64,000 nt of DNA from Vulcanimicrobiota bacterium (lineage in GTDB: Bacteria; Vulcanimicrobiota; Xenobia; Xenobiales; JADMJV01), in assembly GCA_050250895.1 (NCBI GenBank), contig JBFWNU010000002.1, forward strand, positions 887,659 to 951,658, read 5' to 3'. The position numbers and the translations under genes were made by a program. Below, in pieces: positions 3,012-14,468 of this stretch. The notes beneath the pieces were generated by a model. It saw only the letters and a list, made by a program, of their open reading frames with translations, was not told where the DNA came from and made no database searches. Every line of letters starts with the position of its first letter. The stretch's first letter is position 1.

Positions 3012-4403
3012 TCAGGCACGCACTAGCAAGAAGCGCTCGAGTTCGTCCAGCGAGGTCTCGCCCTGAGCGGCTAGCGCGAGGGTCTGGGTCTCGAGGTCAG
3101 AGGGCTCGAATTCGCCCTCGAAGACCCGAGCAGTGAAAGGCAGCGACTCGGCCAGCAACACGCGGCCGCGATAGCCGCTCTGCTGGCAACGGTCGCAGCC
3201 CACGGCCCGGCGAAATTCGCGAGGCAGGGAGAAGTCTACCCGTGCCTGCAAGCTCTCGAACTCGGCCTCGGACAAAGGCTGGGGCTGGCTACAATGGGGA
3301 CACAGCTTGCGCACGAGTCGCTGCACCAGGATGAGTTCCACGGTCTGGGCCAGGGCGCGCGCCGAGCCAGCCAGCACCGACAGGCGAGAGAAGACGTCGC
3401 GGCAGTCGCGGCCGGCCATGCCGGCCACCACCAGGGCGCCGCGCAGCGCGGCCGTTTGAGCGGCCTCGAAGGCCTCGGGGTCGGGCAAGGCGGCTAGACC
3501 GATCACGTCGGGGTCGCTGCGCATCAGGGCTCGAAGGGCCGAGGCTTGGCTGCGGTTGGCTCCGGTCACGCTGGCCAGACTCACCTGGGTGGCCCAGGGT
3601 AGGGTCAACCAGGCCGGGTTCTCGATGGTCATCAGCTTAAGGTTGGGGCCGGCCACTTCGCCCAGGCAGGCGGCCAGCAACGAGTCGCGGCTCTCGTCGC
3701 CGGCGATGATGACCAGGCGGGCTCGCTTGCGCAGAGCCTGGCGCAAGCGAGCCAGGTCGACCTGGCGCAGGCCGAAGGTGGAAAGATCGGGCTGGCTCTG
3801 GTCGCGGTTCTGGAGCTTGACCGTCAGCGTTTCGCCCTGGGCGGACGGCAAGAACGACACGCGCAGGTCGAGTAGACCGCGGTCGGTCTCGACCAGGATG
3901 CGTCCGTCCTGGGGCAGGCTGGTTTCACGCACATCGCAGGCGGCGGCCCGCTTCCACTGTTCAACTAAGGGTGCCAGCAAGCGGTTGTCGAGGCGCGCTA
4001 GCAACTGCAGTTCGCCATCGACGCGGCCGCGTAGCCAGCACTGGCGCTCGGGACCCTGGCCGGTGTAGCAGCGGCCAAGATGAAGACTGTCGGCCTGGCG
4101 CTCGAGGGCCACTTTGAGCATGCGGTTGAAGGCGTCGAGCAGGGGGTCGGCCGTCCGTGGGGGCGGCCCGGCCAGGAGCGACTCGAGCTGGTCGAGGAAG
4201 GGACCAGGGTCGGCCAGCAGGTCGATGTGGGGCGCTTGGCCGCGCAGGAAGCGGTCGAGTTCTGCTCGCTCGAAACGCCACTGGCGCCCGATCTTGCGAG
4301 CCGACAGCCGGCCTTCTCGCAGCCAGCGATAGAGGGTGTTACGGGTAGTGTTGAGGGCCTCGGCGGCCTCGGCCATGGTGAGCAGATCCTCTTTCATGTG
4401 CAT
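3012..4403 (-). CDS. Excisionase-type HTH fused to a GspE/PilB-like ATPase domain with degenerate Walker motifs
   Basis: N-terminal LLTMAEAAEALNTTRNTLYRWLREGRLSARKIGRQWRF. PilB motifs LPQDGRI, DLRVSFLP, RSDPDVI, QRLVRKLCPHC, GCDRCQQSGYRGR. Confidence 0.8.
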   Translation of the reverse strand: MHMKEDLLTMAEAAEALNTTRNTLYRWLREGRLSARKIGRQWRFERAELDRFLRGQAPHIDLLADPGPFLDQLESLLAGPPPRTADPLLDAFNRMLKVALERQADSLHLGRCYTGQGPERQCWLRGRVDGELQLLARLDNRLLAPLVEQWKRAAACDVRETSLPQDGRILVETDRGLLDLRVSFLPSAQGETLTVKLQNRDQSQPDLSTFGLRQVDLARLRQALRKRARLVIIAGDESRDSLLAACLGEVAGPNLKLMTIENPAWLTLPWATQVSLASVTGANRSQASALRALMRSDPDVIGLAALPDPEAFEAAQTAALRGALVVAGMAGRDCRDVFSRLSVLAGSARALAQTVELILVQRLVRKLCPHCSQPQPLSEAEFESLQARVDFSLPREFRRAVGCDRCQQSGYRGRVLLAESLPFTARVFEGEFEPSDLETQTLALAAQGETSLDELERFLLVRA

Positions 4404-4668
4404 AGTGTATCATAGTTATATTGATGCGCTAAGTGATATTTGGACTAGGGCCAGTCCCCCGGTCCGCTCGTCGACAAACCCGATTCCAGGCCGCCGCCAA
4501 AGACATTCCGGGCCAGCTTCAGCCTTTCAGAGTTTTTTCCGGGGGCGCGAATAGACTCTTCCACAGGTGAAAGAAGCGCGGGCCATGCGTTTTCAGGATC
4601 CTTTAATTCGATTCAGATAAATGTTTCAAACGAGAGTGCCACAACTCGTTAACTGTAGGAGGACTTGG

Positions 4669-7605
4669 ATGGATACCATCAACGCTCACGGCAACAACTG
4701 GAATATCAGAGGAACCTTCCCGAAAGCGGCGCCGGCGGCTTCTAAAGCCGTTTCCACGGTTCCGGGTGATCAGGTGTTCTTGAACTCGAACACCCACGCG
4801 GCCGCCTTGAGCATCCCCACCACCTTGCCCGTGACCAGCAAAGCTGCTGTAGTGGCGGCCCCGGTCGCACCCGCCGGTCCTCCGGTCAACACGGCTGCCC
4901 CCATCACGATGGTGGTAGAAGGCCCGACGGCGCCAACCAATAGCGCCGCCATGTCGGCCCCGGCCCCGGTGCTGCGCGCCGCGGCCACCCAGTTTGATGC
5001 CGTCGAGATCATCGATGCCGAGAGCGATGACGATTCGGTCTGGATTCCCTCCGCCTCCGCCACTCTGGTGAACACCGCCAACACCCTCGAGAATCTGAGC
5101 AAGCTGGCCGCCGCGGTCAACTCGAAAGAGTTCACCCTGCTCACCGGCGAAACCGGCGCCGGTAAGACCGCGCTGGTCAAATACCTGGCCCACATGACCC
5201 GCAACCGTCTGCGTCAGGTCAACATGCACGACCAGACCGACGAGGTCGAACTCTTCGGCGGTTATAAGCCGGCTCCCGATGGTGGCTTCGTGTGGCGCGA
5301 CGGCACCATTACCTCGGCCGTCCGCAACGGTCACTGGCTGCTGCTCGACGAGATCAACCTGGCCGACCAGGCGGTGCTCGAGCGCATGAACCCGCTGCTC
5401 GACGGTGAGGGCCACATCGTGCTCACCGAGAAAGAAGACAAAGAGCGGGTCAAAGTTCATGGTCGCACCCGCGTCTTCGCCACCGAGAACCCGGCCAGCT
5501 ACGCCGGCCGTAAAGAGCTGTCGGCGGCGATGTTCGACCGCTTCCAGCGCAAGATTTACATGCGGCGTCTGCCCGACACCGAACTCAACGAAGTGCTCAA
5601 GAAGGACTTCTCGGCCTCCCTGATCGTGGGCAAACTGGGCGAAAGCTTCCCTGACCTCGACAAAGAAACCAAGTCGGTTCTGCGCGGCAACGTGCTCAAC
5701 AGCCCCGAAGCCGTCACCCCCACCTCGGTGGTGGCCCTCGAAGCCGCTTTCGGTAACAGTGACAAGAACGCTCTCAAAGAGCTGCACCGCCAGTTCGCCG
5801 CCAATCCGAGCCTGGATGCGATGCCCATCGCTCCTAAAGCCAAACAGGTGCTGGAAGCCTTCCAGGGTATCCTGGCCAAGCCGCCGGCTCCCGTCATTAA
5901 CGACAAAGTCTTGTTGCAGATGTCGATTCTGCACAACGAGATGGTCAAAGCCTCCGAAGGCCGCGTAGTCGGTAAGAAGGGCGGTCCTTACCCATTCACC
6001 TTGCGCGACCTGCTCAAGCTGGCCAAGCGCATCAAACACTACAGCGAGGTGAGCCCCGAGCTCAACCAGTTCCAACTGGCCTGGCAGCAGGCCCGCGACA
6101 TCTATCGCGAGCGTTTCATGGAAGAGGCCGACCAGCAGACCGTCGAGCACTTCTTCCAGCTTTCGTTTGGTGACCCCAGGGTCAACCGTGACGGCGCTCC
6201 GCCCGAAACCAACGCCTCCATCACGATGGAGAGAATTGGCAACAAGATTCGTATCGGCGATACCAGCCTCGAGATCAATCCCCACGGCGGCGATTATGTC
6301 CCCGATGCCAGCGCCAAGCTGATTTCTACCCCCGGTACGGTCAAGAAGCTGACCCGTCTGGCCCGCGCTGCTGCCCTCGACGAGCCGGTGCTGCTGGTGG
6401 GACCGACGGCTGCTGGTAAGACCTCACTGGTTCGCTGGCTGGCCCACGAGACCAATAACGAGTTCCGCCGCGTCAACCTGAGTAACCACACCGATACCAG
6501 CGAGCTGATCGGCGGCTACTTCCCGGCTGTCGAAGTCGACTTCGACAAAGCCAACACGGCCATCAAAGCCATCGAAGGCAACGCCGATTTGAGCAAGCGC
6601 TTCCAGGCCACCCTGGACAAGATGGGCGACGAGGTCAAGAAAGGCGTCGAGATTCTCAAGAGCAATCCGAGCCTCGAGGGCGACGCTGCCAAAGAAGCTC
6701 AGAAGACGGTCCGCGACGCCCTCGGCCGTATCCTCGGCGACGACCAGTTGCGGGTAGCCTTCGAAGACCTCGAAGACACGGGCGCCGAGTTGCGCAACGG
6801 TCTGGAAGGTTCGTTCCGCACCGTGCCCGGTAAATTCGAGTGGCGCGACGGTATCATCATCGAAGCCATGAAGAAGGGTCAATGGATCGTCCTCGACGAG
6901 ATCAACCTGGCCGAGCCGGCTGTGCTCGAGCGCCTCAACTCGCTGCTCGACAGCGACCGCGCCGTGGTGCTCACCGAGCACCTGGGCGAGCGCATTAAAG
7001 CCGACTCGCGTTTCCGAGTCTTTGCCACCATGAACCCGGCTACCAACGACTACGGCGGACGTAAAGAACTCTCGCCGGCGATGCGCAACCGCTTTACCGA
7101 GCAGTGGTTCCCAGACATCAACGACCGCTCCGAGATTCTCCATATCGCCAATTCCTGGGTGGAAGACTTCAAGAGCGACGCTCAAGAGTATCTCAAAGGC
7201 TTCGATGCCAACACCGCCAGTCGGGAAGACAAGCTCAAAGCCCTGTCCGCTCAAGCCTTCTTGAAAGAAGACACCAGCCGGCTGGCCGAAGCCGTTACCG
7301 ACTTCCAGATCACCATCCGGGCCAAGGCCAAGCGGCAGAACGGGCAGACTCCCGAGTTGCCCACCGCCAAAAAGGACGGTTATCACTACACCTTGCGAGG
7401 AATGCGGGCCTGGCTGAAGTATATCAAGAATAACGTGGGACGCCCGATGCAGAACCCCGACGACCCGAAAGACCGTTCGCTGCGCAAAGACCTGAAAACG
7501 GTTTTCAACGAAGGCGTCGAAGGTTACTACGTGGACGGCCTATCGCGAGCTGAAGATCAGCAGACCGTGAAGTCCCTGGGCGAAAGCCTGGCCAACCGAC
7601 TGTAG
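4669..7605 (+). CDS. Tandem two-module AAA+ ATPase of the MoxR/dynein/midasin clade (midasin-like)
   Basis: RBS AGGAGG before ATG 4669. Two Walker A motifs (GETGAGKT, GPTAAGKT), two LDEINLA Walker B motifs, FATxNP sensor 1 and GRKELSxAMxxRF arginine fingers. Confidence 0.9.
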   Translation: MDTINAHGNNWNIRGTFPKAAPAASKAVSTVPGDQVFLNSNTHAAALSIPTTLPVTSKAAVVAAPVAPAGPPVNTAAPITMVVEGPTAPTNSAAMSAPAPVLRAAATQFDAVEIIDAESDDDSVWIPSASATLVNTANTLENLSKLAAAVNSKEFTLLTGETGAGKTALVKYLAHMTRNRLRQVNMHDQTDEVELFGGYKPAPDGGFVWRDGTITSAVRNGHWLLLDEINLADQAVLERMNPLLDGEGHIVLTEKEDKERVKVHGRTRVFATENPASYAGRKELSAAMFDRFQRKIYMRRLPDTELNEVLKKDFSASLIVGKLGESFPDLDKETKSVLRGNVLNSPEAVTPTSVVALEAAFGNSDKNALKELHRQFAANPSLDAMPIAPKAKQVLEAFQGILAKPPAPVINDKVLLQMSILHNEMVKASEGRVVGKKGGPYPFTLRDLLKLAKRIKHYSEVSPELNQFQLAWQQARDIYRERFMEEADQQTVEHFFQLSFGDPRVNRDGAPPETNASITMERIGNKIRIGDTSLEINPHGGDYVPDASAKLISTPGTVKKLTRLARAAALDEPVLLVGPTAAGKTSLVRWLAHETNNEFRRVNLSNHTDTSELIGGYFPAVEVDFDKANTAIKAIEGNADLSKRFQATLDKMGDEVKKGVEILKSNPSLEGDAAKEAQKTVRDALGRILGDDQLRVAFEDLEDTGAELRNGLEGSFRTVPGKFEWRDGIIIEAMKKGQWIVLDEINLAEPAVLERLNSLLDSDRAVVLTEHLGERIKADSRFRVFATMNPATNDYGGRKELSPAMRNRFTEQWFPDINDRSEILHIANSWVEDFKSDAQEYLKGFDANTASREDKLKALSAQAFLKEDTSRLAEAVTDFQITIRAKAKRQNGQTPELPTAKKDGYHYTLRGMRAWLKYIKNNVGRPMQNPDDPKDRSLRKDLKTVFNEGVEGYYVDGLSRAEDQQTVKSLGESLANRL

Positions 7606-7621
7606 GGCCTTGGAGGCATCG

Positions 7622-10600
7622 ATGAATAACATCTCCGCGAATACACCCCAACCGCCCCAGCGGCGGGCGGCCATCGGCTCGGTCACGGCCAACCTCAACA
7701 AATCGGGCGCGACCAGCCCGGGCCAGACCGACACCGTTCACCTGGCCGGTAGCTGGTGGAACAAGATCTTCGGCAAGGAAGAGCAACCGGCTCAGCCGGC
7801 CCCTCCGGCCCAGAACAATACCCCGGCTCCCGCCGGTCCGGCCCAACCGGCTCCGGCTCAGCCGGCACCTGCTCCCATTCCCACCCCGCCCAAGGGCGGC
7901 GCCAAGCCGACCGACGCCGAGGTGACCAAGCAGGTGCGCGACCGCTTGCAGCAGATCGAGGCCGTGGCCAAGACCATCGGCGGCGACATGGGGACCACCG
8001 TGACCGCCGGCGACGAGTGGAAGCACACCTTCCATCCCGACGGCTCGCACGAGATCACCATCCGCCAGCAAGACCTGGTGGACAAGAGCGAAAACTACGC
8101 CATCGGCAAGGTGCTGGGCGAGGCTGCCAAAGCTCGCTACTCGCACTGGTCGGTGGACCAGCAGCACGCCCAGGACGAAGGCTACATGTACCTGCAGAAC
8201 TCGGTGGAGACGGCTCGCACCGGCGAGATCCTCTCCAGCCGCCTGCCAGGTGCTCCCACCTTCATGGACGATGTCTACGAGCAAGACCTCAAGCACCCCA
8301 CCGAGTGGTATCAAGAGCGCATCGCCGACAAGTTGATGCGCGAGGCCGAAGGCAAGCTCACCCGTGAACAGGCCGAAGCAGTGGCCGCCCAGGTCGGTTC
8401 TAAAGTTCCCAAGCACGTCCAATACGGCAACGGCGTCATGCACAACTGGTTCTATGGCGAGAAAGATCCCGCCATGGATGCCGATGTGGCTAACGCTTTC
8501 GACCGCACCAAGGGTGATATCGAGCAAGCCTACAAGATCAAGCGTTCGGCCCTCGAGCGCGACCTGACCCCGGTCGAGATCAAAGAGCAGGCCGAAGAGT
8601 CCTCGAAGATCGTGCGGGAGAAGCTGTGGCCCGAGTACCAACGTCTGGTCGAACAAGACATCGCCGATTTGTCCAAGGCCCTCCAGGGCGAGCAGAGCCC
8701 CGAGCAGCAGGCCAACCAGAATCAGCAGTCGGGTCAGTCGGGTCAATCCGGCCAGTCCGGGCAGTCGGGCGAGATGAGCCCCGAGCAGATGGCCAAACAG
8801 CAGCAGATGCAGCAGCAGAAGCAGCAGGACGCCAATCAGAATCTTTCCCAGGCTGGCCAGCAGATGCAAAAAGCCGGCCAGAAAATGCAGCAGAGCCAAC
8901 AGCAGAACGGCCAGCAGGCCGGTCAGCAGATGGAGCAGGCGGGCCAGCAGATGCAGCAGGCCGGCCAGCAGCAGGGCAAACCTGACGCCAACTCTCTGCA
9001 GCAGGCCGCTCAAAATATGGAGCAGGCCGCTAACCAGATGCAGCAGATGGGTCAGCAGCAACAGCAGATGACCCCCGAGCAGATGCAGCAGATGGCCGAT
9101 CAGATGAAGGCCCAGCAGGGGATGCAGAATGCCGCCCAGCAGGCCATGCAGCAGAACCCCGGCGCCGTCGAGCAGGCCGCCAATCAGGCTCTCGACCAGA
9201 TGAAGAATAATCCTGACATGGCTCGCTCGATGCAGCAGTCGATGACTCAGGAAATGCAAGATGCGATGCGCAACAACCCCGAGATGGTCGAGCGCGCCAT
9301 GGAACAGCTCCAGCAGAACCCCGAGCTGATGAAGAAGGCCATGGAGCAGATGCAGCAGATGCAGCAGGATAATCCTGAGATGCAAAAGCAGATGCAAGAG
9401 CTCCAGCAGCAGATGCAAAAGGACCCGGCCAAGGCCCAGGAGCAGATGCAGAAAATGGCCGAGCAGATGCAGCAGAACGCTCAGATGAAAGAGCAGATGC
9501 AGCAGATGCAAAACCAGATGGCCAACGATCCGCAGAAGGCCGCCGAGCAGATGCAGCAGCTGGCCGACCAGATGCAGCAGAATCCCGCCATGAAGGACCA
9601 GATGCAAAAGCTCGCCGAGCAGATGCAGAAGGACCCTCAGGCGGCTCAGCAGCAGATGCAACAGCTGCAAGAGCAGATGCAGCAGAACCCGCAGATGGCC
9701 GAGCAGATGCAAAAGCTGGCCGAGCAGATGCAGAAAGATCCGCAGGCCGCCCAGCAGCAGATGCAGCAGATGCAGGATCAGATGCAGCAGAACGCTCAGA
9801 CCAAAGAGCAGATGCAGCAGCTGCAAGAGCAGATGCAAAAAGATCCGGCCAAGGCTCAAGAAGCCATGCAAGAGCTCGGCAAGCAGATGGAGCAGAACCC
9901 CGAGCTCAAGAAGCAGATGCAGCAAGCCATGTCCGAGGCTCTCCAGAAAGATCCTCAGGCTGCCCAGCAGGCCGCCGAGAAGATGATGGACGACCCGGCC
10001 ATGCAGCAAGCCATGCAGAACGCCATGAAGAACAATCCGGCGATGCAGCAGGCGATGCAGGATGCTTTAAAAGACAACAAGCAACTGCAAGACGCGATGA
10101 GCCAGCAGATGCAGAACAACCCCGACCTGATGAAACAGGCCGCGGAGCAGATGCAGAAGGATCCCGCCGCCGCCCAGCAGGCCATGGACCAGCTCAAGGA
10201 CCAGATGACCCCCGAGCAGCAGCAGGCCATGCAGCAGGCGATGGAACAGGCCAAGCAAGACCCGGCCAAAGCCGCCGAGGCGATGCAGCAGGCCATGGAG
10301 CAGAACCCCGAGCTCAAAGAGAAGATGCAGCAGCAGATGCAGCAGCAGATGCAGCAGCAGCTCAAAGACAATCCCGAGCTCGCCAAGCAGGCCATGGAGC
10401 AGCTCAAAGACAACCCGGCCATGCAGAAGGCGATGCAAGAAGCTCTGCAGGACGAGCTCAAGAAGAATCCCGAGGCCCTCAAGAAAGCCGCCGAAGAACT
10501 CGAGAAGAACCCCGAGGCCAAGAAAGCCGCCGAGGAGGCTCTCGAAAAGCAGCTCAAAGAGAATGGTCAGCCCGAAGAAGCCAAGCAGGGCAAAGCCGGC

Positions 10601-12217
10601 GAGCAGTCTGAAGAAGACAAAGCCAAAGAAGGCGGCAAGGGCCCCAAGATGCCCAACATGCCGAACATCCCCGGCATGCCTCCGATGGGCCAGAACGACA
10701 ACAAGGACGCCAAAGAAGCTGGCGACAAGATGAAAGAAGCGGCCGACGCGATGAAAGAGGCCGCCCAGAATCCCGACAAAGCCGGCGAGAAGATGCAAGA
10801 AGCCGGCAAAAAGATGCAAGAAGCCGGCAAGAAGCTCGAAGAGATGGGCAAACAGTCCGGCGACAAAGAGATGGAGCAGGCCGGCAAAGACATGCAGCAG
10901 GCCGGCCAGGAGATGCAAGAGGCTGGCGAAAACCAGCAGCAAGCCGATGGCCAGCAAGGCGAAGGCCAGCAGGGTGAGGGCCAGGAAGGTCAGCAGGGTC
11001 AGCAGTCGGGCAAGCCCGGTCAGCAGTCCGGCAAACCTGGTCAGCCCGGTCAGCCCGGTCAGCAGGGTGGCGAGCAGGGCGGGGAAGGTCAGCAGTCTCA
11101 GGGTGCTGAGCAGACCGGCCAGAACCCGCCTGCCAAAGACCTGCCCAAGATGAGCGAAAAAGAGGCCAAAGAGCTGGCTGAGAAGATCATGCAAGAGCTC
11201 GACAAAGACCTCAACGAAAAGCTCGAGACCGAACAGAAAGACGCCCGCCGCGAAGAAGGCGAGAAGGCTCAGGACCAGCGCGACATCCAGAAATCGCAGG
11301 CCCAGCCTCCCCGCGAAGACATCGGCAACCAGCGCACCAACGGCCAGTCTCAGGGCGGCTCGACCTCAGAGATCGACCTGGCCGACCTGGAAGATTTGGT
11401 CCGTCAGAAGCAAGACCTGGCTGCCAAGTTCGAGGCCATTCAGACCGATTACGACAAGTATCATATGAACGTGGCTCCGATGGCCGACGAACTGGCCGGC
11501 GAGCTCTCTAACTTCCTCAACGAGAACACCCGGCCCAAGTATGAGCACACCACTCACAAGACCGGCAAGAAGTTGAGCATCAAAGCGGCCATGCGCAGCG
11601 AAGCCAACTATGAGCGCACGGGCGTGTGGGACCCGGACGTGTGGTTGCGTCGTACCAACCCCAGCAAGCGCGGCCACAAGTTCATGTTCGTGATGGACGA
11701 GTCGGGCTCGATGGGCTCGAAGGGCGACCCTAAGTGGGACAACTCCATCAACGGCCTGATCATGGGCGGCGAGGCCCTCGAGTCGCTCGACATCGAGTTC
11801 GGCATCGTCGGCTTCTCGGACCGGCCCCTGGTTCACAAAGAACTGCACGACAAATATCCCGAGAAGCGCCAGGCGATTCTGGCCGACATCGAGCGGGCCC
11901 CTCACGGCTCGACCAACGACTCGGCTGGTATCCGCACCGCGATGGAGATGATCGAAAAAGGCGCCGACCCTGAAGATGAAAAGGTCATCATCGTGCTCAC
12001 CGACGGTGAGGGCGATACGGCCGGCGTCAAGAAACTGCTCGAGGAGGCCCGCGAGAAGAAGATCCACATTATCGGCGTGGGCATCGGCCCCGGCACCGAC
12101 TTCGTCAAGCAGGTCTATGAGCACCACATCGTGGTCGAGAAGCTCGAGAACCTGCCCATCGAACTGGCCGAGCTGATTCAAGAGCGCATCGAAGGCGAAT
12201 CGAGCGAGTTCTACTAG
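7622..12217 (+). CDS. Large vWA/MIDAS protein with degenerate metallopeptidase-like N-domain and Q/M-rich repeat stalk
   Basis: RBS GGAGG. MIDAS elements DESGS, GSTND and VLTDG. About 800 aa of Q/M/E/K-rich helical and G/Q low-complexity sequence. Confidence 0.9.
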   Translation: MNNISANTPQPPQRRAAIGSVTANLNKSGATSPGQTDTVHLAGSWWNKIFGKEEQPAQPAPPAQNNTPAPAGPAQPAPAQPAPAPIPTPPKGGAKPTDAEVTKQVRDRLQQIEAVAKTIGGDMGTTVTAGDEWKHTFHPDGSHEITIRQQDLVDKSENYAIGKVLGEAAKARYSHWSVDQQHAQDEGYMYLQNSVETARTGEILSSRLPGAPTFMDDVYEQDLKHPTEWYQERIADKLMREAEGKLTREQAEAVAAQVGSKVPKHVQYGNGVMHNWFYGEKDPAMDADVANAFDRTKGDIEQAYKIKRSALERDLTPVEIKEQAEESSKIVREKLWPEYQRLVEQDIADLSKALQGEQSPEQQANQNQQSGQSGQSGQSGQSGEMSPEQMAKQQQMQQQKQQDANQNLSQAGQQMQKAGQKMQQSQQQNGQQAGQQMEQAGQQMQQAGQQQGKPDANSLQQAAQNMEQAANQMQQMGQQQQQMTPEQMQQMADQMKAQQGMQNAAQQAMQQNPGAVEQAANQALDQMKNNPDMARSMQQSMTQEMQDAMRNNPEMVERAMEQLQQNPELMKKAMEQMQQMQQDNPEMQKQMQELQQQMQKDPAKAQEQMQKMAEQMQQNAQMKEQMQQMQNQMANDPQKAAEQMQQLADQMQQNPAMKDQMQKLAEQMQKDPQAAQQQMQQLQEQMQQNPQMAEQMQKLAEQMQKDPQAAQQQMQQMQDQMQQNAQTKEQMQQLQEQMQKDPAKAQEAMQELGKQMEQNPELKKQMQQAMSEALQKDPQAAQQAAEKMMDDPAMQQAMQNAMKNNPAMQQAMQDALKDNKQLQDAMSQQMQNNPDLMKQAAEQMQKDPAAAQQAMDQLKDQMTPEQQQAMQQAMEQAKQDPAKAAEAMQQAMEQNPELKEKMQQQMQQQMQQQLKDNPELAKQAMEQLKDNPAMQKAMQEALQDELKKNPEALKKAAEELEKNPEAKKAAEEALEKQLKENGQPEEAKQGKAGEQSEEDKAKEGGKGPKMPNMPNIPGMPPMGQNDNKDAKEAGDKMKEAADAMKEAAQNPDKAGEKMQEAGKKMQEAGKKLEEMGKQSGDKEMEQAGKDMQQAGQEMQEAGENQQQADGQQGEGQQGEGQEGQQGQQSGKPGQQSGKPGQPGQPGQQGGEQGGEGQQSQGAEQTGQNPPAKDLPKMSEKEAKELAEKIMQELDKDLNEKLETEQKDARREEGEKAQDQRDIQKSQAQPPREDIGNQRTNGQSQGGSTSEIDLADLEDLVRQKQDLAAKFEAIQTDYDKYHMNVAPMADELAGELSNFLNENTRPKYEHTTHKTGKKLSIKAAMRSEANYERTGVWDPDVWLRRTNPSKRGHKFMFVMDESGSMGSKGDPKWDNSINGLIMGGEALESLDIEFGIVGFSDRPLVHKELHDKYPEKRQAILADIERAPHGSTNDSAGIRTAMEMIEKGADPEDEKVIIVLTDGEGDTAGVKKLLEEAREKKIHIIGVGIGPGTDFVKQVYEHHIVVEKLENLPIELAELIQERIEGESSEFY
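9350..9990 (+). repeat. Coding tandem repeat of about 6 x 35 aa (105 bp), unit QMQQNPxMxEQMQKLAEQMQKDPQAAQQQMQQLQE
   Basis: Period visible in the translation as alternating NP/DP helix breaks. Boundaries approximate. Confidence 0.75.
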
Positions 12218-12218
12218 G

Positions 12219-12665
12219 ATGACGCGGGATCTTCCGGCGCTGCGCAAGCAGCTCGAGGAGTTTCTGCGGCGCTACGGCAACGACGGTGAACCCGTCGCTC
12301 TGCTGGGCGGCGAGTCTCTGCCTGACACGCTTGCTTTCGAAGCCGTGGTGATGGCCTATCCCAAGCGTCGGGTGGTGCACCTCGACGGCACCCTCAGTCT
12401 CGACGAGGATGCCGTGCGAGATGGACTGGTGAAGGCCTTCGAGAAGAACCATATCTTGCTGGTCACGCTGACCCGCAAGGTGGGGCTCGAGGTCTTCAAG
12501 CCCCTCGAGAAGTTCCTGGCCGAAGGCAAGCTCGACGTGCTCAAGCCCTGGGGCTGGACCACCGCCGAGCCCTCCGACGATTTTCGCTTGATCATCCACT
12601 CGCGCCCAGGCTCGTTTCCTTTCGACGAGAACGTCAGCCTGAAGTTCAACCTCGACACCCAGTAG
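12219..12665 (+). CDS. Small protein resembling a catalytically dead single AAA module
   Basis: Starts 1 nt after the vWA stop. GEPVALLGG..., RDGLVKAFEKNHILLV and DDFRLIIHSRP are collinear with motifs of the upstream AAA modules. Confidence 0.65.
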   Translation: MTRDLPALRKQLEEFLRRYGNDGEPVALLGGESLPDTLAFEAVVMAYPKRRVVHLDGTLSLDEDAVRDGLVKAFEKNHILLVTLTRKVGLEVFKPLEKFLAEGKLDVLKPWGWTTAEPSDDFRLIIHSRPGSFPFDENVSLKFNLDTQ

Positions 12666-12668
12666 CTT

Positions 12669-13946
12669 CCGGGTTTGCTCCAGGATTTCGCGGGAGCACG
12701 TCCCCCCGGCCGGTCAGGCCGGGTTTGCTCCGAGTTTTCGCGGGAGCATGCTCCGGCTTTTCGCGGGAGCACCGTCCTCGGGCCGGTCAGGCCGGGTTTG
12801 CTCCGAGTTTTCGTGGGAGCACGCTCCGGCTTTTCGTGGGAGCACCGCCCGCGGGCCGGTCAGGCCGGGTTTGCTCCAGGATTTCGCGGGAGCACCGCTC
12901 GCGGCCGGTCAGGCCGGGTTTGCTCCGAGTTTTCGCGGGAGCATGCTCCGGCTTTTCGCGGGAGCACCGCCCCGGGCCGGTCAGGCCGGGTTTGCTCCGA
13001 GTTTTCGCGGGAGCATGCTCCGGCTTTTCGCGGGAGCACCGCCCTCGGGCCGGTCAGGCCGGGCTTGCTCCGAGTTTTCGTGGGAGCACGCTCCGGCTTT
13101 TCGTGGGAGCGCCGCCCTCGGGCCGGTCAGGCCGGGCTTGCTCCGAGTTTTCGTGGGAGCACGCTCCCGCTTTTCGTGGGAGCAACGCCCGCGGGCCGGT
13201 CAGGCCGGGTTTGCTCCAGGATTTCGCGGGAGCACCGCCCCCGGCCCGGTCAGGCCGGGTTTGCTCCGAGTTTTCGCGGGAGCATGCTCCGGCTTTTCGC
13301 GGGAGCACCGCCCTCGGGCCGGTCAGGCCGGGCTTGCTCCGAGTTTTCGTGGGAGCATGCTCCCGCTTTTCGTGGGAGCAACGCCCGCGGGCCGGTCAGG
13401 CCGGGCTTGCTCCGGCTTTTCGCGGGAGCACCGCCCCGGGCCGGTCAGGCCGGGTTTGCTCCGAGTTTTCGCGGGAGCATGCTCCGGCTTTTCGCGGGAG
13501 CACGTCCCCCCGGCCGGTCAGGCCGGGTTTGCTCCAGGATTTCGCGGGAGCACCGCCCTCGGGCCGGTCAGGCCGGGCTTGCTCCGAGTTTTCGTGGGAG
13601 CACGCTCCGGCTTTTCGTGGGAGCGCCGCCCTCGGGCCGGTCAGGCCGGGCTTGCTCCGAGTTTTCGTGGGAGCACGCTCCCGCTTTTCGTGGGAGCAAC
13701 GCCCGCGGGCCGGTCAGGCCGGGTTTGCTCCAGGATTTCGCGGGAGCACCGCTCGCGGCCGGTCAGGCCGGGTTTGCTCCGAGTTTTCGCGGGAGCGCTC
13801 CGGCTTTTCGCGGGAGCACCGCCCCCGGCCGGTCAGGCCGGGTTTGCTCCGAGTTTTCGCGGGAGCATGCTCCGGCTTTTCGCGGGAGCACGTCCCCCCG
13901 CCCGGTCAGGCCGGGCTTGCTCCGAGTTTTCGTGGGAGCACCGCCC
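12669..13946. repeat. Intergenic modular tandem array of about 20 units (49-74 bp) made of REP/BIME-like hairpins
   Basis: 19 copies of CCGGTCAGGCCGGG plus a partial first unit. Each is followed by one or two GCTCC-N11-GGAGC hairpins and a short C-rich linker. Confidence 0.95.
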
Positions 13947-14021
13947 GGCGAGCCCGGGCCACGGCCGGCCCACGACCGAAGCGAAAGAAGACTGAACGGC
14001 GCCAACAGAGAAGAGGCGGCC

Positions 14022-14468
14022 ATGAAACCCGTTATCAATCTTGACGAACTCGAGATGGTCCACGAAGACAGCGGCCAGAGCTATGGCATCATCTCGGACA
14101 ACATCGGAGCCAAGAAGCTGGGCTACAACCTGTCGGTGTTGCCCAAAGGGGCTGACTCGGTGTATTTTCACAATCATCACGTGGCCGAGGAGATGTTCTT
14201 CATCCTCGAGGGTGAAGGGATTCTGCGCTTTGGCGACCAGGAATACCCGCTGCGCCCTAACGACGTGATCGCCTGCCCGCCGGGGGGTAAAGAAGTCGCT
14301 CACCAGATTCGCTGCACCAGTGATACACCCTTGAAGTTTCTGGCGCTGGGCACTCGCGAGACCAGCGAAATCGTGGAGTATCCCGATGTCGGTCGCGTGA
14401 TGGTCGCCTCGGGTCCCGAATTCCACCGCAACTTGCGTCTGGTCTTTCAGGCCGACAGCGCTCTTTAG
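14022..14468 (+). CDS. Cupin domain protein
   Basis: GAGG RBS before ATG 14022. Motifs IGAKKLGYNL, FHNHHVAEEMFFILEGEG, AHQI and EIVEYPD. Confidence 0.9.
   Translation: MKPVINLDELEMVHEDSGQSYGIISDNIGAKKLGYNLSVLPKGADSVYFHNHHVAEEMFFILEGEGILRFGDQEYPLRPNDVIACPPGGKEVAHQIRCTSDTPLKFLALGTRETSEIVEYPDVGRVMVASGPEFHRNLRLVFQADSAL

Follow-up and report, generated by a model that had tools for sequence, protein, structure and literature searches.

Introduction

In the pairs NorQ-NorD, CbbQ-CbbO and CobS-CobT, a gene for an AAA_5-type ATPase is followed by one for a VWA partner with a long flexible linker. As described in the available portions of two accounts, the VWA domain of such MoxR-class pairs docks on the pore of the ATPase ring, and the ring remodels the linker (PMC13036017; bioRxiv 10.64898/2026.10.09.757910). 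In NorQ-NorD, a finger of the VWA domain reaches into the pore via the helix-2 inserts, and a post-sensor-1 loop is contacted by the C-terminus of the VWA protein (PMC13036017); the same docking of the VWA domain at the pore is given for CobS-CobT (bioRxiv 10.64898/2026.10.09.757910). The accessible text of both accounts makes no mention of a dead AAA subunit. A likewise arranged gene pair is found in a stretch of 64,000 nucleotides (nt) from a Vulcanimicrobiota bacterium (GTDB lineage Bacteria; Vulcanimicrobiota; Xenobia; Xenobiales; JADMJV01; assembly GCA_050250895.1, contig JBFWNU010000002.1, positions 887,659 to 951,658 of the forward strand), which is called the window in the following. 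The pair consists of a two-module ATPase (P0002) and a VWA protein (P0003), and is followed by an open reading frame (ORF) for a protein of 148 amino acids (aa), P0001. The most probable role of this small protein is that of an accessory subunit of the motor without catalysis of its own; it could serve there as ring member, cap or regulator.

Dead AAA modules have been described in several settings. Midasin (Rea1/Mdn1) and dynein combine live and nucleotide-free modules in one ring; the dynein AAA5 module (AAA_9) binds no nucleotide. The D subunit of magnesium chelatase (BchD/ChlD) consists of a degenerate AAA part, which stacks on the ring of the I subunit, an acidic/Pro-rich linker and a VWA domain. 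The clamp-loader subunit delta-prime, whose partner is gamma, is AAA+-like, has no nucleotide-binding motifs and carries a basic residue at the arginine-finger position. LAP1 is reported to have an atypical AAA+ fold in which nucleotide motifs are missing and one Arg is strictly conserved (PMC4358337). Some MoxR-vWA ternary systems have as their third component an NTPase that is either of the STAND type and inactive or of the FtsH type and inactive in part (PMC7159879, Kaur et al. 2020). The known dead modules thus lie inside long chains (dynein, midasin) or are parts of larger proteins (chelatase D, delta-prime, LAP1, iSTAND, FtsH). A free-standing, lid-less dead core of the AAA_5 type tied to a MoxR/midasin motor was not found in full-text searches of open-access papers and preprints, nor in Pfam, NCBIfam or PADLOC.

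Results and Discussion

Gene order

The three genes lie on the plus strand, tightly packed, in the order ATPase, VWA protein, 148-aa ORF:

4621..7605, plus strand: tandem AAA_5 ATPase P0002, 994 aa (Pfam; first ATG at 4621, second ATG at 4669)
7610..12217, plus strand: VWA/MIDAS partner P0003, 1535 aa (Pfam VWA)
12219..12665, plus strand: predicted dead, lid-less AAA+ alpha/beta core P0001, 148 aa (translation, alignment and model)

The second ATG of the ATPase gene may be its likelier start, since the closest orthologue (genome G001) aligns from residue 17. At the junction of the last two genes, the stop codon TAG of the VWA gene is followed by a single G and then by the ATG of the 148-aa gene. 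An earlier note, made from the letters of this DNA and the translated frames, had taken the frame 12219-12665 for the third gene; translation and the gene order agree with this.

Fold of the 148-aa protein

The note had proposed, from short blocks of collinear correspondence with the upstream ATPase, that the third gene encodes a stand-alone dead AAA module, and it had expected an alpha/beta core of the P-loop type. A different fold, the outcome that would speak against this proposal, was looked for with AlphaFold2, Foldseek and VIA-align; the model and all structure matches listed pointed to AAA+. With a 21-sequence alignment of the 148-aa family (A2; see below), AlphaFold2 gave a model with a predicted local distance difference test score (pLDDT) of 90.8 and a predicted template modelling score (pTM) of 0.86. 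A run with four sequences reached a pLDDT of 59.2, too weak to use, with the order of helices and strands already identical. In the model, helices (residues 5-22, 38-46, 63-73 and 90-102) alternate with strands (26-29, 51-56, 78-84, a hairpin at 105-116, 123-128 and 141-144). This fits the three-layer, alternating alpha/beta core of the AAA+ fold, preceded by a helix alpha-0.

A Foldseek search with the model yielded 204 PDB matches at E <= 1e-3; those listed were AAA+ throughout and included RuvB, MCM, NtrC-type activators, CbbQ, ClpB, dynein and proteasome ATPases. VIA-align, which is independent of Foldseek, likewise gave AAA+ proteins in all 50 matches listed. Its four best-ranked matches were as follows (Z score, residues aligned, root mean square deviation):

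NorQ: Z 12.8, 139 residues, 3.1 A
S. pombe Mdn1: Z 12.8, 136 residues, 2.8 A
yeast dynein: Z 12.7, 136 residues, 3.0 A
CbbQ2: Z 12.4, 139 residues, 3.2 A

The best-ranked structures belong to the MoxR/midasin/dynein group, the same group as the live ATPase of the locus, and the model supports the view that P0001 represents an AAA+ alpha/beta core of this type (AAA_5-like), encoded on its own.

Taken alone, the sequence leaves the link to AAA proteins marginal and unproven. P0001 had no match in Pfam (E <= 1) or NCBIfam, and none of the 21 family members matched AAA_5 (PF07728) at E <= 10. AAA_9 (PF12781, the dynein AAA5 region) was matched by two of the 21 only, with a best E of 5.9e-4; the nearest ESM-Atlas clusters were also AAA_9 clusters (score 0.89, to be read as a lead only). 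In a BLASTP comparison of P0001 with P0002 the best E was 1.3, and the register running from RDG to sensor 1 appeared with module 1 only (E 5.5), without a match in module 2. Profile searches of the PDB with the alignments A1 and A2 returned nothing significant (best E 0.78 and 0.082, respectively). When A2 was compared by hhalign with a profile of 22 AAA_5 sequences, made from the live modules of the ATPase family of the operon, a collinear alignment over 130 columns was obtained with P 0.0014. A reversed profile gave P 0.69, and an unrelated alpha/beta profile (VWA) gave P 0.011 over 47 columns; set against these controls, the value of 0.0014 has to be regarded as weak. Alignments to single modules, in another register with module 1 (E 0.11) and over 57 columns with module 2 (P 0.0077), were superseded by the combined profile. 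The eight peptide strings which the note had quoted all occur as written in P0001 and P0002, and hhalign places all four of its blocks in the same register, so that the proposed collinearity holds, with marginal sequence statistics. The AAA+ fold is accepted here despite these statistics, because the AlphaFold2 model is confident and the matches listed in the structure searches are all AAA+ proteins.

Lost and retained motifs

Motif columns were assigned from the hhalign register, and residues were counted over the 21 sequences of A2. The relevant positions in P0001 are:

12306..12329, plus strand: P-loop equivalent, residues 30-37, GGESLPDT (hhalign register, column counts)
12465..12470, plus strand: Walker B equivalent, residues 83-84, Thr-Leu in place of Asp-Glu (in a near-invariant LLVTLT strand)
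12531..12566, plus strand: pre-sensor-1 beta-hairpin, residues 105-116 (model strands 105-109 and 112-116)
12597..12629, plus strand: most conserved motif, residues 127-137, HSRPGSFPFDE, in the sensor-1/post-sensor-1 loop (column counts)
12642..12644, plus strand: Lys142, aligned with the Arg of "RF" in the ATPase modules (hhalign, counts)

At the position of the Walker A Lys (36), the family has Glu in ten sequences, Asp in five, Ala in three, Pro and Gly in one each and one gap, with no Lys or Arg in any of the 21. The Walker B columns 83 and 84 hold Thr (19) or Arg (2), and Leu (18), Val (2) or Ile (1), respectively. The column of the sensor-1 Asn (129) contains Arg in 12, Pro in six, Leu in two and Phe in one. 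A lid is absent, as the chain stops at residue 148, four residues past the last core strand (141-144). The absence of the Walker A Lys, the Walker B Asp-Glu, the sensor-1 Asn and the lid, which had been noted before for the one protein, was thereby found to be a property of the family, at least for the columns counted. Because of the fold and the loss of the P-loop Lys, the Walker B acids, the sensor-1 Asn and the lid, P0001 almost certainly would neither bind nor hydrolyse ATP.

Two observations go beyond the earlier note, namely the loss of the helix-2 insert and the basic character of the position aligned with the arginine-finger motif. Opposite the insert of the live modules, hhalign opens a gap, and the helix 63-73 is uninterrupted in the model. 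Of the two marks of the helix-2-insert clade (MoxR, chelatases, MCM), P0001 therefore has the pre-sensor-1 hairpin and lacks the helix-2 insert. The sequence and length of this hairpin vary, with insertions and deletions among the homologues in A2. Position 142, opposite the Arg of RNRF in module 2, is basic in 20 of 21 sequences (16 Arg, four Lys, one Gln); "RF" is what we take to be the arginine-finger motif in this AAA+ clade. Within the HSRPGxFPFDE motif, His127, Ser128, Gly131 and Phe133 are each present in 20 of 21 sequences, and Pro134 in all.

The ATPase and its VWA partner

P0002 matches Pfam AAA_5 in three stretches (E 2.5e-51) and has two modules, between which an AAA_lid_7 domain, the midasin AAA lid, is recognised (residues 437-517, E 2.7e-9). 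Both modules have an intact Walker A (GETGAGKT, GPTAAGKT), an intact Walker B (LLDE, VLDE), the sensor-1 Asn and the "RF" arginine motif (FDRF, RNRF). The RF positions are invariant across ten ATPase orthologues (R162/F163 and R679/F680 of alignment A3). Among 8000 scored candidates, 284 relatives of the ATPase were found at E <= 1e-20. The public labels of the nearest ones include Candidatus Eremiobacteraeota, Armatimonadetes, Xenobiia and Vulcanimicrobiota; the Joint Genome Institute often labels them "midasin", and eukaryotic midasins match at about 1e-100. Module 2 of P0002 is also extended by some 95 residues inserted at the position of the helix-2 insert (residues ~640-735, window 6538-6825); the alignment shows no such insertion in the orthologues of the f3 family and of G008, and a shorter one in that of locus L015.

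In P0003, a conserved N-terminal region is followed by a low-complexity linker, and a VWA domain forms the C-terminal part (Pfam E 2.1e-14, residues 1359-1495, nt 11684-12094). For the C-terminal 355 aa of P0003, the best sequence match in the PDB was 6qt8_A (E 5.6e-7), the midasin MIDAS domain; the N-terminal region had no sequence relative there. The linker of about 800 aa (residues ~360-1170) is rich in Gln, Met and Glu, with repeated "QQMQ..NPE.." units, and the NCBIfam model for a putative cobaltochelatase, TIGR02442, matches the linker-VWA part weakly (E 3.6e-6). VWA orthologues occur in all related loci, with lengths of ~755 aa in the f3 loci, 1535 aa in the window and 1738 aa in L015 (frame counted from stop to stop). 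Contigs often break within the linker region of this gene, and in L018 the gene is seen as two overlapping ORFs, 10509-12059 and 11704-13050; either a frameshift or faulty assembly of the repeats may be the cause. PADLOC contained no defence-system model for the VWA protein or the 148-aa protein, and the ATPase gave generic P-loop matches only. From the AAA_5 modules, the midasin lid and the MIDAS-like VWA domain behind a low-complexity linker, the pair can be identified as a bacterial, split, midasin-like AAA/VWA motor.

Homologues, selection and distribution

The 21 sequences of A2 came from four sources. Three clusters were found in a collection of 5.8 billion sequences, 11 representatives at E <= 0.001 in a library of 1.84 billion, ten homologues in 41 related genomes, and one locus in a species-genome collection. 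One of the 11 representatives, P0014, a repeat protein of 3353 aa (E 2.4e-23), was rejected as an artefact, as the short string EDAVRDGL recurs in it 20 times; P0019, whose C-terminal third is unrelated sequence, was excluded from A2. The homologues are 131-164 aa long; only two, which are truncated representatives of clusters, are shorter, with 103 and 108 aa. The genome of the window has a single copy, as judged by a profile search with A2. A scan of metagenome contigs for relatives gave 231 pattern matches, none of which was confirmed.

In nine pairs of orthologues, the ratio of non-synonymous to synonymous substitution rates (dN/dS, method of Nei and Gojobori) was 0.05-0.33. Fifteen columns are invariant or nearly so, at pairwise identities of 24-92% to the window protein, and the motifs and the position of the gene are conserved across three families. 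The 148-aa ORF is a real gene under purifying selection. That it might have no function, being either what is left of an AAA module after duplication and decay or a chance reading frame in GC-rich DNA, as the loss of all catalytic residues, the lack of a database family and the small number of relatives in the two large collections could suggest, is contradicted by these data on selection and conservation as well as by the confident fold prediction, and is extremely improbable. Pieces of the gene were also present in contigs from RNA libraries of wastewater (two studies; 90-97% identity; parts of 12057-12555 covered), one of which, 12106-12259, spans the VWA stop and the start of the 148-aa gene. 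Such libraries can contain DNA, and the contigs are a weak hint of transcription and habitat. The 20 sequencing runs listed each contain <= 0.10 of the sampled words, and four were aligned to the window.

The tight family was found in ten of 401 genomes sampled from the phylum, all in the order of the window's own organism. In the 44 genomes of the class, ten have the tight family and two a distant form. In five other genomes of the phylum sample, a distant branch was recognised by profile at E 1e-12 to 1e-15; the following genes of this branch (E 1e-12 to 1e-19) belong to other families of the phylum:

L027, 1153-1944, plus strand: distant-branch gene
L028, 1411-1908, minus strand: distant-branch gene
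L033, 1435-1905, minus strand: distant-branch gene
L034, 1432-1878, minus strand: distant-branch gene

Those in L027 and L028 lie beside a radical-SAM-like gene, recognised by eye without a family scan, and no ATPase or VWA gene was found in the 14-15 kb examined around them. In L033 and L034 the gene settings are others again, with unrelated genes nearby.

Linkage to the motor genes

The co-occurrence analysis proposed in the earlier note supports a functional link. In all ten loci of the tight family (the window and nine others) the 148-aa gene adjoins the VWA gene. The two genes share a strand in six loci (the window, L010, L015, L016, L017 and L018) and converge in the other four (L011, L012, L013 and L014); whatever its orientation, the 148-aa gene is in every case found next to the 3' end of the VWA gene. 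In L010 a single base separates the VWA stop from the ATG, as in the window; in L018 (genome G008, 11704-13467) the ATG follows 3 nt after the stop, the two frames being in phase with one TAG between them. The ATPase gene is present wherever the contig is long enough (the window, L011, L012, L013, L015 and L018). Within the class, ten genomes have the ATPase (E <= 1e-30), and eight have it together with the 148-aa gene, i.e., eight of the ten which carry the latter. The two genomes with the 148-aa gene and no ATPase have a completeness of 64-65%, and their contigs are short and break off within the VWA gene. In one of the converse cases (G016) the contig stops right after the ATPase. In the other (G040, locus L032) the ATPase-VWA pair is followed by an unrelated convergent zinc-ribbon ORF, and the locus has no homologue of the 148-aa gene. 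Because this pair exists without it, the 148-aa protein should be seen as an accessory and not as an obligatory part. The conserved neighbourhood and the purifying selection show a genetic tie to the motor and indicate that the protein is a dedicated accessory of the midasin-like ATPase and its VWA/MIDAS partner.

A further gene, for a protein of 358 aa, lies directly upstream of the 148-aa gene and in the same orientation in L013 (6444-7517, minus strand). It is placed likewise in L011, L012 and L014, according to tblastn coordinates, and is nearby in L010 and L016. In the genome of the window (G000) it is on another contig (C9, ~90426-91349). The protein has an N-terminal hydrophobic segment, signal-peptide-like by eye, and gave no significant Pfam match and no known family. 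In L013 there is also a hydrophobic, glycine-zipper-like ORF of 178 aa (5372-5908, plus strand; no Pfam match) between the VWA gene and the convergent 148-aa gene, and L014 has a gap of similar size at this place.

Possible role in the motor

The earlier note had suggested that the pseudo-ATPase acts as ring cap, inhibitor, adaptor or chaperone. Where they are understood, dead AAA modules appear to pack on live ones through the normal side-by-side interface (LAP1, delta-prime, chelatase D). For this reason we favour a role of P0001 as a member of the ring or spiral, and would give an even chance to its being a degenerate AAA core which, as a dedicated accessory of the motor, is docked on the ATPase as a non-catalytic subunit. 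It would sit side by side with an ATPase module at an ordinary AAA-AAA interface and, as a member of a ring or spiral, would set or limit the assembly of the ATPase. Two live modules and one dead module, taken twice, would make six modules; alternatively, the dead module could cap an open spiral. Lys142 (Arg in most homologues) may enter the ATP site of the neighbour. In the manner of NorQ-NorD, the VWA protein would then be pulled by the live modules. A stricter version, in which two sets close a ring of six modules from separate pieces, a bacterial counterpart of the mixed rings of dynein and midasin, and the dead module, which has kept no more than its arginine-finger-type residue, thereby gates the ATP site of its neighbour, would have to be called improbable.

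Several observations weigh against such a subunit and keep other explanations open. Both ATPase modules keep their own RF arginines and, unlike Torsin, would need no donated finger, and a closed ring of six could be formed by three protomers of two modules each, with no third module required. In NorQ, the pre-sensor-1 hairpin is at the subunit interface (PMC13036017), whereas it is the least conserved part here. Conservation is concentrated on the face of the former nucleotide pocket (P-loop, Walker B, sensor-1 and post-sensor-1 loops), which fits a repurposed binding pocket as well as a ring interface. The G040 pair does without the gene, and in the four convergent loci the 148-aa gene, being on the opposite strand, appears to be co-transcribed with the gene of the putatively secreted 358-aa protein instead.

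The dead module could instead bind the VWA/MIDAS protein and not the ATPase, as a holder, decoy or hand-over adaptor. By mimicking a ring subunit, it would hold the VWA domain, the acidic C-terminal tail or the linker, and would time the engagement of the VWA protein with the live ring. The constant position at the 3' end of the VWA gene, in either orientation, would be understandable in this case, and so would the short distances in the window, L010 and L018 and the single TAG between in-phase frames in G008. Moreover, the best-conserved motif of the family is the post-sensor-1 loop, the element which in NorQ-NorD, in the portion of the account available, binds the VWA C-terminus (PMC13036017). 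A simple decoy should, however, resemble the post-sensor-1 loops of the live modules (NPASYAGRKELS, NPATNDYGGRKELS), and PGSFPFDE does not; the C-terminal tails of the VWA proteins differ among the families carrying the gene. No fused form of VWA and dead AAA, and no other fused or longer form of the protein, was found among the 8000 scored candidates, which is weak evidence. On balance, binding to the VWA protein seems somewhat unlikely.

The conservation of the four loops lining the old ATP pocket could also mean that this pocket has been rebuilt to bind something else (a peptide, a small molecule or a client protein), so that P0001 would act as a substrate-selecting adaptor or a sensor. The client might be the putatively secreted 358-aa protein, whose gene is directly upstream in L011-L014 and near in L010 and L016; its location on another contig in the window genome and its lack of any known family do not favour this. 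That the distant branch occurs at L027 and L028 without ATPase or VWA genes in the 14-15 kb examined, and in other settings in L033 and L034, implies that the fold can work outside the motor. No ligand is indicated by any of the results, and we consider a rebuilt pocket unlikely.

By analogy with the chelatase subunits D and I, dead modules could finally assemble with each other into an inactive ring stacked on the live one. The three elements of chelatase D (degenerate AAA, linker and VWA) are all present here, split over two genes, and the weak match of P0003 to TIGR02442 points in the same direction. AAA rings, however, normally pack through the lid of one subunit on the core of its neighbour, and P0001 has no lid; an arrangement of this type is very unlikely.

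Comparison with described systems

By these analogies, the mode of action of the operon is probably that of MoxR/VWA motors, and its architecture is that of a midasin split into separate proteins. NorQ, CbbQ and CobS are hexamers of single-module ATPases, whereas here two modules are joined by a midasin-type lid and a dead core is separate. With midasin and dynein the locus shares AAA_5 modules in one chain, with AAA_lid_7 here, and the low-complexity linker followed by MIDAS; their combination of live and nucleotide-free modules in one ring would be paralleled by the 148-aa protein, which matches Mdn1 and dynein at Z 12.7-12.8. Their six modules are in one chain, whereas the bacterial locus has two in one chain and one free, with three genes in all.

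[quoted passage not shown] The third proteins there are large, of STAND or FtsH type, and the vWA proteins have variable C-terminal effector domains (PMC7159879); here the third protein is a bare core of 148 aa, and the VWA domain is C-terminal with nothing behind it and without an effector domain. Having no Pfam or PADLOC match, the 148-aa protein stands outside the third-component families given in the available part of that work (VMAP, iSTAND, FtsH-type and beta-propeller; PMC7159879). As in LAP1/LULL1-Torsin, an AAA+-like fold without motifs occurs beside a live AAA+ protein and keeps a conserved basic residue, here at the position aligned with the arginine-finger motif; Torsin, however, has no arginine finger of its own, whereas both live modules here keep theirs, and there is no sequence relationship to LAP1/LULL1. 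A single BchD polypeptide comprises dead module, linker and VWA domain, and its dead module retains a lid, whereas the dead module here is separate, lid-less and encoded after the VWA protein.

If P0001 is a ring member or a donor of an arginine finger, the locus would offer a small, tractable system for non-catalytic subunits which tune AAA+ rings, and could plausibly represent a stage between MoxR ATPases with one module and the rings of six found in midasin and dynein. An origin of these rings from MoxR, early in eukaryotic evolution, has been put forward (PMC3495828). Should a mixed ring be formed, it would be a living example of the way in which the live/dead rings of midasin and dynein could arise from MoxR-type ATPases, and the first case in bacteria of a pseudo-ATPase exerting control of the LAP1-Torsin type. 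The general importance is limited by the narrowness of the family, since the tight form is confined to one order of the phylum sampled.

End of the operon and neighbouring features

Downstream of the 148-aa gene, the following feature was found:

12686..13941, no strand assigned: palindromic repeat array with units of 23, 49/50, 73 and 123 nt (Tandem Repeats Finder)

This array of about 1.25 kb starts 20 nt past the 148-aa gene and consists of nested palindromes with the cores TGCTCC..TTTTCG..GGGAGCA and GGCCGGTCAGGCCGG. The only terminator-like hairpins on the plus strand of the region, at 13153, 13349 and 13667, are all inside it, so that the array probably marks the end of the operon. From the tight packing on the plus strand and the restriction of the hairpins to the downstream array, the three genes look like a single operon ending after the 148-aa gene. 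The array resembles an intergenic cluster of repetitive extragenic palindromic (REP)-like repeats. A frame of 597 aa runs through it (12675-14468) and is almost certainly noncoding over the repeat stretch; its 3' end, at ~14.0-14.47 kb on the plus strand, encodes a small cupin-domain protein (Cupin_2, E 6e-15). On the other side of the ATPase gene, a divergent gene (3012-4403, minus strand) encodes a helix-turn-helix (HTH) domain of the excisionase type (HTH_17, E 6e-17) fused to T2SSE (E 6e-53); the combination of HTH_17 with the ATPase domain of type II/IV secretion in one protein is an unusual fusion.

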